From the NCBI RefSeq assembly GCF_965641715.1, contig NZ_OZ282453.1: a DNA stretch of 64,000 bases; one strand, written 5' to 3'. Positions 52,301-55,300 of this stretch are shown here, piece after piece. The DNA comes from Escherichia coli (GTDB lineage: Bacteria > Pseudomonadota > Gammaproteobacteria > Enterobacterales > Enterobacteriaceae). Position numbers: made by a program. Numbering within the stretch: position 1 is the first letter of the stretch; each line of letters starts with the position of its first letter.

Positions 52301-55300
52301 AGGCATGACGCTGGAGTCGGTTGTTGAACTGGAAAATGGCAAGATGGTGATGGTCAGCGAATTCTTCAATGAAGACGATCCTGACTTTGACCACTCTCTC
52401 GACCAAAAAATGGCCATTAATTGGGTAGAAAGCTGGGAGGTCGTACTGGCTGATGAAGAACACAAGTAAGTTCCAGAATGTAGTGATTGTCACTATTGTC
52501 GGTTGGCTTGTGTTGTTTGTCTTTCTGCCCAACCTGATGATCATTGGCACCAGCTTTTTGACCCGCGACGACGCCAGTTTCGTCAAAATGGTCTTTACGC
52601 TGGATAACTACACGCGTCTGCTCGATCCGCTCTATTTTGAAGTGCTATTGCACTCGCTGAATATGGCGCTGATCGCCACCCTCGCCTGCCTGGTGCTGGG
52701 CTACCCGTTTGCCTGGTTTCTGGCGAAGCTGCCACACAAGGTGCGTCCGCTGCTGCTGTTTCTGCTGATTGTTCCCTTCTGGACCAACTCACTGATTCGC
52801 ATCTACGGGCTGAAAATTTTCCTCAGCACCAAAGGCTACCTCAACGAGTTTTTGCTCTGGCTGGGCGTTATCGACACACCAATTCGTATCATGTTCACGC
52901 CCAGTGCGGTGATTATCGGTCTGGTTTACATTCTGCTGCCGTTTATGGTGATGCCACTGTACTCCAGTATCGAAAAACTGGATAAGCCGTTGCTTGAGGC
53001 GGCGCGCGATCTCGGTGCCAGCAAGTTACAGACTTTTATCCGCATCATTATTCCACTGACGATGCCGGGGATTATTGCCGGATGTCTGCTGGTGATGCTG
53101 CCAGCGATGGGCCTGTTCTATGTGTCCGACCTGATGGGCGGTGCGAAAAACCTGCTGATCGGTAACGTCATCAAGGTCCAGTTCCTTAATATTCGTGACT
53201 GGCCGTTTGGTGCAGCTACCAGCATTACGCTGACTATCGTAATGGGCCTGATGTTGCTGGTTTACTGGCGCGCTTCTCGTTTGCTGAATAAGAAGGTGAG
53301 CGAATTAGATGATTAATCCTTTATATTCAATGCATTAAGTTTGTTTTTGAGTGGTTTTGCCGTTTAAGGTAACGACGTTATAGATCCTATCAAAATCAAT
53401 CAATTCCATTCTGGTTTTGGAGAAAGATTTTTCGAGAGCTTCGGTCTTTAACTAAAACTGATTGCGTATAATCCCAATACCCCTCCCCGACTATCTGAAT
53501 GGTCGGGGAGGCACTTCAAGCACAAAATATCATCCCTGCGCCGTTGATTACTCTGCAGGTGAAGTCGGCCACTCAATATCAGGTGCAGTTGATGTATCAA
53601 CACGGTTCAGCAACACCCGATACTTTTTCCAGGTTGTTACCAGACTCACATTCGTTCATTAATATGTCCTGTGATTTGCGTGCGGTGAGGTAGCCTTTTC
53701 CCAACCTCACCATCATCCGGCAATTTGTATTTATCACAAACGGCCTGTATCAGTTGTCTGTTGCACCAACCATACCCGCAAATTTGAGCCATTGTCCTGA
53801 TGGACTTCTGTTACCGCGGTAGTGATAAACAAGGATTGCATTTGTTACTCCACCATAGTCAGCTTTATGTGATGTGGTTAAGCGAATTGTATAATCACCA
53901 TCGGGCAGGTTAAAAACTTCAATTACAGTCCCTGCTAATTCAACCGCTCCAAACCCCGTTATATTGTTGATGCTGCCCGCATTGAATCCCATCATATCGC
54001 CAAAACCAATCCAGTACTTTTTGCTGAACGCACCATTTGACCTCAGGTGGTTAATAAATGTGGACATACTCATGCCCATTTCGCCGCCAGTTATGGCTGA
54101 TGTACGTACCGAAATACTTGGCAGAGCACTACTCTTCACATAAGAGCTCAGAAGATTTATGACTTCTGTTTTCGTATAAGCATTAACGTTAGCCGCAGTC
54201 AACGTTATATCCGCAGTGCCATCAAACTTCACACCAGCAATTTCCCTTGCAGTCTGCAATTTCGTGGCACTGGCTGCGTTACCCGTTGTATCCTGATTGC
54301 CTGCCGCATTCACCCCCGGGATCAAATCTTTTACTGTATAAATCTGCGCCCAGTCCGACTCAAACCCATACTCATCCCGTGAGGAACGATAAAACAGCCC
54401 ACCATTTTTATAATTGGCCCTGATTTGCAACGTCCGGCAACTTCCACCCCCTGTATAGAAGTTTGCAACAATATAGCTGCTGCCTGTCCGGGTGACATTG
54501 TATGCACCAGATTTGGCATTCCACGGAACGCCTCCCTCTGACTCTGCGTGCACACCGGACGATCCAAGAGCAAAAGCAGAGACATCTGCAGCGGACAGCC
54601 TGATGTCTGATTTCAATGCCTTACCATTCACCTTACGACCAGATGGAACCCGGTCATTTGCATTATCATTCACCGCTTTCACCGCCATTGGTGTTGCCGC
54701 CAGCGATTCACTGTCACTGTCCGTGGCACTGCTGAGCTGTACCACCCCCTTTCTCGTCGTGCTCGCATCCTCTAGCGCCACGGCAGATGCAATATCCTCT
54801 GCCCGTTTTGCTGCTGTCTCGGCACGCGTTGCTGCAGATTCCGACGTACTTTTGCTCTGAGCTGCCGCTGTCGCACTACCAGCTGCCTCTGTCGCCTTCG
54901 TGGATGCCGTCGTGGCACTGACCTTCGCCTCTGACGCCTGTCTTACCGCCTCATCTTTTGAAGCAGACGCCGATGATGCTGATGACGCCGCCGAACTGGC
55001 GGACGATGCGGCTGCCGTTTCTGAGGCTCCTGCGCGGGTTTCCGACGCTTTCGCATTCGTCTCAGATGTCTTCGCTGCGGAAGCAGAACTCGCAGCTGCA
55101 GTGGCCTGTTCAGTGGCTTCGCCAGCCTTCGTTGTGGCTGTTGAAGCGGACGATGCAGCGCTTTCTGCCGATTTTCCGGCGGCAGCGGCACTGGCTACAG
55201 CCTCCCCTGCCTTCACTGATGCCTCACGGGCCGATGATGCAGCCGCGGTTTCTGAGCCTGCCGCAGCTGAGGCACTCTGTCCCGCTGCCGTTTCAGAAGA

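Follow-up and report, generated by a model that had tools for sequence, protein, structure and literature searches.

A lambdoid prophage begins within the last codons of potB and splits the potABCD operon in an Escherichia coli genome

The 64-kb window, i.e., the whole stretch of E. coli DNA analyzed here, carries potA and potB of the spermidine/putrescine importer operon potABCD, followed by phage tail genes (Table 1). The two pot genes are co-directional on the plus strand, as the earlier note on this DNA had said: K-12 PotA matches the window with 100% identity over 378 aa (tblastn), and PotB is 99.6% identical to its K-12 counterpart over residues 1–273 (tblastn). In K-12, potC stands directly 3' of potB with an ATGA stop/start overlap. 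Neither potC nor potD was found by tblastn anywhere in the 64-kb window, the sole match being a weak paralogous PotC alignment inside potB, and on the minus strand the stop codon of the side tail-fibre gene stf lies 433 bp downstream of the potB stop, in agreement with the ~430 bp first estimated.

The phage genes follow the order of the lambda tail module, H-M-L-K-I-J-lom-stf(-tfa), with tfa present as a remnant only, and the element is a lambdoid prophage; its tape-measure gene continues past the window edge at 64000. Stf starts with a PF08400 'Prophage tail fibre N-terminal' domain (E = 1e-71), and its C-terminal 290 aa match phrog_6722 to the last residue (E = 6e-127). The gene bears an exchanged C-terminal receptor-binding module, for which structure and family searches returned generic tail-fibre matches only. 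The tfa remnant aligns with the C-terminal end of PHROG families for tfa (E = 1e-11 to 1e-13) and shares 98.5–100% identity with the 3' end of lambda tfa; the corresponding stretch is annotated by PGAP as a partial tfa in the lysogens CV839-06 and EC416. No stx gene was seen in the 10.7 kb of prophage that the window covers, which stops short of the late regulatory region; the annotation of the EC416 prophage shows none either, including between Q and the lysis genes.

Table 1. Features around the potB end and in the adjoining prophage (window coordinates)
Feature	Position	Strand	Description and basis
potA	51333..52469	+	Intact ATP-binding subunit of the spermidine/putrescine ABC importer; ORF, K-12 PotA match
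potB	52453..53316	+	Permease; chimeric ORF, host to 53298, phage 53299-53316
Attachment-site core, 14 bp	53285..53298		TGAATAAGAAGGTG; common to attB, the window junction and the potC-side junction
Tail-proximal arm of the phage attachment site	53299..53547		Equivalent of the lambda P arm; opens with the substitute potB 3' end
Candidate integrase arm-type binding site	53415..53426	+	TTTTGGAGAAAG; 12-mer repeat match, putative Int binding
13-bp hairpin	53482..53511		CCTCCCCGACTAT / ATGGTCGGGGAGG; strong, 36 nt downstream of the tfa remnant
tfa remnant	53548..53649	-	33 codons + stop, 3' part; N-terminal part missing
stf (side tail-fibre, 800 aa)	53750..56152	-	PF08400 + phrog_6722
lom (Ail/Lom outer-membrane protein)	56211..56810	-	ORF; RefSeq name from EC416 and CV839-06
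J (tail-tip/host-specificity protein, 1165 aa)	56880..60377	-	RefSeq 'phage attachment tail tip protein J' in relatives
I, K (C40 peptidase), L, M and 3' part of tape-measure gene	60438..64000	-	ORFs; names from collinear EC416

The boundary between host and phage can be placed to the base. Positions 53211–53298 are identical between the window and K-12 (88/88), and beyond 53298 matching drops to random level; the sequence up to 53298 belongs to the E. coli chromosome and that from 53299 on to the phage. The closest matches in the genome collection have 99.4% identity in the backbone and 97.9% in the prophage. The earlier note had put the prophage exactly at the potB/potC junction: the operon is indeed split between these two genes, while the crossover itself lies inside the last potB codons, 9–22 bp upstream of the potC ATG. 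PotB ends in ...LLNKKVSELDD* in the window and in ...LLNKKVELE* in K-12, its last five codons and stop (AGC GAA TTA GAT GAT TAA) being of phage origin. Because the terminal residues are swapped for phage ones (ELE to SELDD), potB remains whole; RefSeq lists the same protein as WP_000799406.1, which carries the PotB annotation in both CV839-06 and EC416.

Alignment of the potB 3' end with K-12, which the earlier note had proposed, located the attachment core and showed altered last codons in a reading frame that is kept. The core was defined by a three-way comparison of the window, K-12, and EC416. It is repeated beside potC at the far prophage end in EC416, CFT073, and 640R1, and BLAST match boundaries in ~5,400 genomes begin exactly at its first base. 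O157 TX313-1 has a one-base variant of the core, TGAATAAAAAGGTG, the only variant seen, which falls outside the proposed overlap: by analogy with lambda, positions 53285–53291 (TGAATAA) are likely the 7-bp overlap region, and 53292–53298 (GAAGGTG) likely form a core-type Int half-site. The core spans the potB codons L-N-K-K-V together with the potC ribosome-binding site (Shine-Dalgarno AAGGTG), so that potC retains its translation signals.

The other end of the element can be seen in relatives. EC416 is 97.9% identical to the window over 51300–64000, and EC416, CV839-06, and CFT073 are all collinear with it over the 12.7 kb visible. In EC416 the prophage runs from potB through to xis-int and is followed by potC-potD, and CFT073 has the same layout, i.e., potA-potB, stf...xis-int, potC-potD; in relatives, then, potCD adjoin the prophage end rather than lying elsewhere unrelated to it. 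The relatives' integrase has the PF09003 arm-binding and PF00589 catalytic domains and is 44.5% identical to lambda Int, and their Xis belongs to PF07825. The int gene points the same way as potC in every relative examined, lying 166 bp upstream of it in O157 TX313-1, CFT073, and 640R1 and ~1.06 kb upstream in EC416, which has two opposite-strand genes between int and potC.

The phage arm next to potB has no similarity to K-12 over 53299–53547. It is identical to the arm of CFT073 PhipotB over >330 bp and 95% identical in LC744180. The 12-mer TTTTGGAGAAAG, allowing at most two mismatches, occurs once in this tail-proximal arm and in three tandem copies at -80, -67, and -56 from the core in the int-proximal arm of EC416, with only 6 occurrences in the whole window on both strands (128 kb). 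It is strongly enriched in the arms and represents a candidate arm-type Int-binding motif. The strict IHF consensus (WATCAANNNNTTR) has no match in either arm.

Taken together, we read the junction, with a probability of about 0.88, as the junction on the tail side (attR in lambda terms) of a lambda-like prophage that was inserted by tyrosine-integrase site-specific recombination at TGAATAAGAAGGTG. The phage arm provides a replacement potB 3' end (SELDD-stop for ELE-stop), which leaves potA and potB together as a complete pair of genes downstream of the potA promoter. Along with the second copy of the core and a ribosome-binding site of their own, potC and potD would be found ~40–56 kb off at the other prophage end, directly downstream of xis-int and in the same direction; judging from the relatives, this arrangement is presumably that of the window's own genome as well. 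The expected far end would consist of an arm of ~107 bp with GTTTTGGGGAAA.GTTTTGGAGAGATTTTGGAGAAAG, then TGAATAAGAAGGTGGAACTCGAATG, then potC-potD, and excision would restore ...CTGAATAAGAAGGTGGAACTCGAATG.... A search of the phage collection with the reconstructed attP as query found no attP-spanning record. Two entries with 97%-identical Int, ON470612 and ON470619, were considered as free phages and set aside, since they are prophage cut-outs still bearing potC/potD.

Lambda itself, with its familiar att layout, has the core CAGCTTT-TTTATAC-TAAGTTG and the gal-bio intergenic site as target. The likeness extends to an integrase in the relatives that is homologous to lambda Int over its full length, to the placing of xis upstream of int, to three tandem putative arm-type repeats on the int-proximal arm and at least one on the distal arm, and to an imperfect inverted repeat in the core region, C(A/G)CCTTA-TGAATAA-GAAGGTG, resembling that of lambda. 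The potB prophage differs in core sequence and in target, sitting inside an operon rather than between gal and bio, and in having no strict IHF consensus in its arms. Phage 21 and e14 reportedly integrate into the 3' end of icd, and they are comparable in that a lambdoid phage enters the 3' end of a host gene, carries a substitute end, and leaves the gene functional. At potB, however, the substitute is only five codons long and the target is mid-operon, so that the downstream genes are parted from their promoter; integration at icd is not known to affect a downstream gene. No sequence feature in the window argues for a regulatory switch of the kind operated by the Listeria comK phage ('active lysogeny'), and since potB is kept intact by the phage, nothing needs restoring for potAB.

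Integration at potB/potC is already published and common in E. coli. The statement in the earlier note that the potC region is a reported site of lambdoid and Stx phages is borne out by the literature (PMC8065619, PMC8705337, PMC3486847, PMC3573123). Stx phage integration at the potC site is attributed to Steyert 2012 as cited in PMC8065619; Stx2a, Stx2d, and Stx2e prophages occupy potC (PMC9453080, PMC8705337), and the Stx2 phages at this site have one integrase type in common (PMC9453080). Prophage J of O104:H4 2009EL-2071 lies at potB/potC (PMC3486847), CFT073 carries the 44-kb prophage PhipotB (PMC3573123), and PP_potB of O157:H7 clade 8 marks a locus of frequent gain and loss (PMC9997748). 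By its arm next to potB, which is homologous to that of the described potB prophages, the prophage of the window belongs to the PhipotB/PP_potB group. CFT073 PhipotB shares with it the integration site, the core, the SELDD PotB tail, the hairpin, and the tfa remnant, but has another stf C-terminal module, extra small ORFs, a methyltransferase, and two tfa remnants before potB; its head genes are lambda-type, not HK97-type, when compared with EC416. In O104:H4 2009EL-2071, potB plus 317 bp of arm are 99.1% identical to the window. Prophage J, PP_potB, and the Stx2 potC prophages share the site and differ in cargo and structural modules. Our analysis adds little to this well-populated published class: it resolves the 14-bp core, the changed end of PotB, and the motifs of the arms to the base.

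The site is occupied widely. Of 5,426 complete E. coli genomes, 3,800 have an intact attB, which leaves ~30% occupied, and spread sampling agrees with this figure. potB together with at least ~175 bp of the window's arm is found in 917 of the 5,426; among the matches listed, most extend to ~53633. Only five of the 5,426 genomes match the full query through 53750. The occupied lineages are distant from one another (B2 CFT073, O157:H7, O104:H4, pig isolates).

Whether the element can still leave is a separate matter. It might be a decayed, non-excisable cryptic prophage, with the split of potABCD permanent, and the 33-codon tfa remnant, with no tfa after stf, points in this direction, as do the defects of relatives: the tape-measure gene is frameshifted in CV839-06, and in EC416 a cro-like gene has a frameshift and terL is interrupted. 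We nevertheless regard this as possible rather than probable. The tail ORFs of the window are uninterrupted (J with 1165 aa, Stf with 800 aa, Lom, I, K, L, and M) in the ~17% of a typical prophage that is visible, the Stf C-terminus reaches the last residue of its family, and gain and loss at potB are frequent in O157 clade 8 (PMC9997748).

The earlier note had further suggested that cutting potCD off from the potA promoter could impair spermidine/putrescine import. In its strong form, i.e., uptake abolished or strongly reduced in lysogens, we consider this unlikely, and as silencing of potCD it is not borne out: in four lysogens, PotC and PotD are full length with 0–2 substitutions vs K-12, and in wild-type CFT073 potD mRNA was quantified and responds to a regulator (PMC8716947). 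It is true that potC is removed from the potA promoter by 40–56 kb and many opposing phage genes, that the potB-potC ATGA translational coupling is lost, that no sigma-70 consensus match (≥9/12) faces potC between int and potC, and that the operon has been called 'disrupted' (PMC9453080). Against this stand the insertion in ~30% of complete genomes from distant lineages, the potC Shine-Dalgarno sequence kept in the duplicated core, and the co-directionality of int with potC in all relatives examined. In the potC-side arm, the scan found a sole consensus promoter, which points away from potC, and, where this region has its short form, no terminator separating int from potC. Hand inspection gave 7/12 matches only, which are not counted as evidence. 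Transcription of potCD may come from the int region by read-through or start at a weak promoter in the arm; our search of the literature found no statement on which promoter drives potCD in lysogens. With ~30% of genomes having potCD off the potA promoter, yet potD transcribed in CFT073, the arrangement has modest relevance for the polyamine physiology of CFT073, O104:H4, and STEC.

A bolder idea is that the arms are adapted to keep both operon halves working and tie polyamine import to the prophage state, making potCD a phage-controlled unit; we find it quite improbable. It draws on the PotB tail provided by the tail-side arm and on the int-side arm, which always has an A before the core and thereby yields an 8-codon mini-ORF, ATG-AAT-AAG-AAG-GTG-GAA-CTC-GAA-TGA; the stop of this mini-ORF and the potC ATG overlap in precisely the way seen for potB and potC. 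If it were true, potCD would be transcribed from the int region, at a low level in lysogeny and raised on induction.

Last, a genuine junction whose far end lies at another locus, with homologous recombination between two lambdoid prophages having inverted a chromosome segment and left potCD beside a different prophage half, has precedents in the documented 650-kb inversion between a potC prophage and a yebW prophage of O157:H7 (PMC10925052) and in LC744180 ('Stx1a_EH2115'), but is very improbable here, as the close relatives examined are all canonical (EC416 and CFT073 through to potC, CV839-06 collinear over the visible 12.7 kb). In Stx1a_EH2115, potB, the core, and the window's arm occupy one end and torS the other, which marks the record as an inversion hybrid, and we do not take it as proof of an Stx phage at the potB att site.

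The hairpin in the arm (fold z-score -3.5, + strand) follows not only the tfa remnant but also, at a distance of 166 nt, the stop of potB. Promoter and terminator scans of the window arm found none, the hairpin failing the latter because no T-run follows it. It probably represents the end of the late (tail) transcript. As an attP-borne analogue of lambda sib/tI it is unlikely: the same segment also follows tfa mid-genome in phage cdtI, so that it travels with tfa, not with attP.

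A prophage splits the potABCD operon between potB and potC, and the feature is real. The earlier note had read the operon in this way from a co-directional potA and potB without potC or potD after them and with a minus-strand stf about 430 bp further on; our open reading frames, tblastn hits and the measured distance (433 bp from the stf stop codon to the potB stop, stf being the next substantial gene) agree with that observation, and its reading is right. tblastn with K-12 PotC and PotD found neither gene in the whole 64 kb. The tape-measure gene leaves the window at 64000; the visible prophage is 10.7 kb. 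The tail genes are named after their RefSeq counterparts in two collinear relatives with a prophage at the same site, CV839-06 and EC416.

Genes and elements around the potB end of the prophage
Feature	Position	Strand	Evidence or remark
potA	51333-52469	+	100% match to K-12 PotA (tblastn)
potB	52453-53316	+	99.6% identity to K-12 PotB over residues 1-273 of 275 (tblastn)
Substitute potB end	53299-53316	+	Phage-derived
AT-rich arm	up to about 53434		Common to CFT073 and LC744180
13-bp hairpin	53482-53511		Fold z = -3.5
tfa remnant, last 33 codons	53548-53649	-	PGAP partial; matches C-terminal ends of tfa families
stf, side tail-fibre, 800 aa	53750-56152	-	"Prophage tail fibre N-terminal" PF08400, E = 1e-71
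lom, J (1165 aa), I, K, L, M, 3' part of tape-measure gene	beyond stf, to 64000	-	ORFs in window

The window is identical to K-12 MG1655 in 88 of 88 bases over 53211-53298 and unrelated to it from 53299 on. K-12 potB ends ...CTG AAT AAG AAG GTG GAA CTC GAA TGA, with the potC ATG overlapping its stop, and potB of the window ends ...CTG AAT AAG AAG GTG AGC GAA TTA GAT GAT TAA. The potC-side junction of EC416 reads ...CCACCTTA TGAATAAGAAGGTG GAACTCGAATG, in which GAACTCGAATG is the potC start, with potD next. The core, TGAATAAGAAGGTG (window 53285-53298), is thus the sequence common to attB (the unoccupied host site) and both junctions; an independent check agrees with this three-way comparison, since a search of the EC416 potC-side segment against 5,426 complete genomes gives, for unoccupied genomes, matches starting exactly at the first core base. 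The sole core variant seen, TGAATAAAAAGGTG in an O157:H7 strain, leaves the proposed overlap TGAATAA unchanged.

The int gene of the relatives, which adjoins the potC-side junction, specifies a tyrosine recombinase of 372 aa with PF09003 (lambda arm-DNA-binding) and PF00589 (catalytic) domains and 44.5% full-length identity to lambda Int, and an excisionase gene precedes int. The 12-mer TTTTGGAGAAAG occurs in three tandem copies at -80, -67 and -56 from the core in the int-proximal arm (phage DNA beside the core on the potC side) and once at +130 in the tail-proximal arm, at window 53415-53426; a search allowing up to 2 mismatches gave only 6 matches across both strands of the whole window. 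The attP reconstructed around the core, C(A/G)CCTTA-TGAATAA-GAAGGTG, is an imperfect inverted repeat flanking 7 bp, the same arrangement as the generally known C-O-C' layout of lambda. Because of the Int homology, the arm repeats, the inverted-repeat core and the position of the variant outside the overlap, we infer that the site is a lambda-type att. GAAGGTG would then be a putative core-type half-site and the TTTTGGAGA repeats putative arm-type sites, and integration would proceed by lambda-type site-specific recombination with strand exchange in 53285-53291.

Since the window stops inside the prophage, its far end has to be judged from relatives. In EC416, the closest available relative (97.9% identity over 51300-64000; the backbone of the window has a best match of 99.4% in the genome collection), the order is potB, tail, head, Q, immunity, exo, xis, int, two small opposite-strand genes, core, potC, potD. 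In CFT073 it is potA-potB, tfa remnants, stf ... xis-int, 166 bp, potC-potD, exactly the arrangement proposed for the window, and the tail-side junction is identical to ours for >330 bp; this prophage has been described as the "PhipotB" island (PMC3573123). The common form has the int end 166 bp upstream of potC, in the same direction. The far end of our prophage is probably like these, with xis-int followed by the core and potC-potD. That an inversion has rearranged it seems quite improbable against this shared order, even with inversions between lambdoid prophages documented at this site (PMC10925052) and a "phage" record, LC744180, bounded by potB and torS. That record (LC744180.1, "Stx1a-converting phage Stx1a_EH2115", "complete phage genome") carries potB, the core and the arm at one end, whereas its opposite end is the torS start; apparently it is a hybrid that arose by inversion between a torS/torT and a potB/potC prophage, and not a unit excisable by its own integrase.

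In EC416 (locus L003, 9288-9936) and about 200 other genomes, int is followed on the opposite strand by two extra genes, one with DUF2335 and one for a hypothetical protein of 67 aa, before the attachment arm begins; they are moron-like cargo with its own 10/12 consensus promoter, and in such strains int is displaced about 1 kb from potC. In EC416, terL of the potB prophage is interrupted by an element of roughly 15.9 kb (22997-38940 of locus L002, NZ_AP027404.1 3446000-3495999) with its own tyrosine integrase, DUF927 primase-like protein, SSB, ProQ/FinO, major capsid, prohead protease, portal, HNH and terS/terL, which looks like a capsid-forming phage satellite. In CV839-06 terL is unbroken, and both EC416 fragments join there with a 7-bp overlap.

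PotB loses its three last residues, ELE, and gains SELDD, and the ORF stays open; the product is WP_000799406.1, annotated as PotB in lysogens. The split removes the ATGA coupling of potB to potC and the link of potC to the potA promoter, and the earlier note considered that spermidine/putrescine import could be impaired unless a phage-side promoter drives potCD. The core includes the potC Shine-Dalgarno sequence, AAGGTG, 9-14 nt upstream of the potC ATG, so the far junction preserves the signals for starting potC translation. Four lysogens of distant lineages encode full-length PotC and PotD that differ from the K-12 proteins by 0-2 substitutions, and RNA-seq quantified potD in wild-type CFT073, with a 2.5-fold decrease in a kguR mutant (PMC8716947). 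As far as this evidence goes, the split does not silence potCD. A consensus scan of the EC416 int-potC interval gave no promoter with at least 9/12 matches facing potC. Read-through from the int region may be the simplest candidate for driving potCD, because int ends so shortly before potC (166 bp) in the same direction; a weak arm promoter is a possible alternative.

On the int side, the core is invariably preceded by a phage A (EC416, L003 10219-10246; also L005, L008 and L010, further loci with a potC-side junction), which gives ATG AAT AAG AAG GTG GAA CTC GAA TGA, an 8-codon mini-ORF (MNKKVELE, then stop) whose stop overlaps the potC ATG as the K-12 potB stop does. We place little weight on it as a meaningful feature because no Shine-Dalgarno sequence lies upstream and an A is expected there by chance one time in four. 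As a mirror image of this, the window's arm retains a sequence resembling the potC start, GGTGAGCGAATTAGATGATTAA vs host GGTGGAACTCGAATGATCGG.

This is a known and very common integration site in E. coli, and the interpretation of the earlier note is already in print. The K-12 potB-potC junction is unbroken in 3,800 of the 5,426 complete E. coli genomes, and therefore about 30% are occupied; an evenly spaced sample gave the same fraction (12/40), and its occupied genomes share the 107-bp int-proximal arm. On the tail side, 917 genomes cover 80% or more of the query from potB to stf, which means that they carry potB and no less than about 175 bp of the same tail-proximal arm. The earlier note's statement that lambdoid phages, Stx phages among them, use a potC-region site is confirmed by PhipotB, by O104:H4 prophage J at "potB/potC" (PMC3486847), by five Stx2e prophages at potC (PMC8705337) and by a description of potC as a site used by Stx phages (Steyert 2012, cited in PMC8065619). 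O157:H7 clade 8 has PP_potB (PMC9997748), and an O157 outbreak strain prophage 5 (potC) (PMC10925052).

Only 5 of the 5,426 genomes, all of them isolates from pigs or feral pigs, match the 52453-53750 query in full; among the matches listed, arm-sharing genomes mostly part from the window at about 53633, within the tfa remnant, which is 98.5-100% identical to the lambda tfa 3' end. Phage cdtI has the hairpin and the tfa end together in mid-genome, so the hairpin is probably part of the end of the late operon and not of attP. The last 290 aa of Stf align with phrog_6722 as far as its final residue, and no tail-fibre assembly gene follows this phrog_6722-bearing stf, only the 33-codon tfa 3' remnant. 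We read this as a commonplace exchange of tail-fibre modules that removed most of tfa.

No integrase or prophage lies beside the 3' end of icd in the window (40555-41805, minus strand; region 38800-41805), and the e14/phage-21 site is therefore empty. CV839-06 has a lambdoid prophage with int beside icd, only about 12 kb from its potB prophage. The chromosomal part of the window also holds minCD, an autotransporter (29898-32546), a bluF/bluR-like pair and an intact hlyE (haemolysin E/ClyA) at 21877-22932 (PF06109, E = 3e-147).
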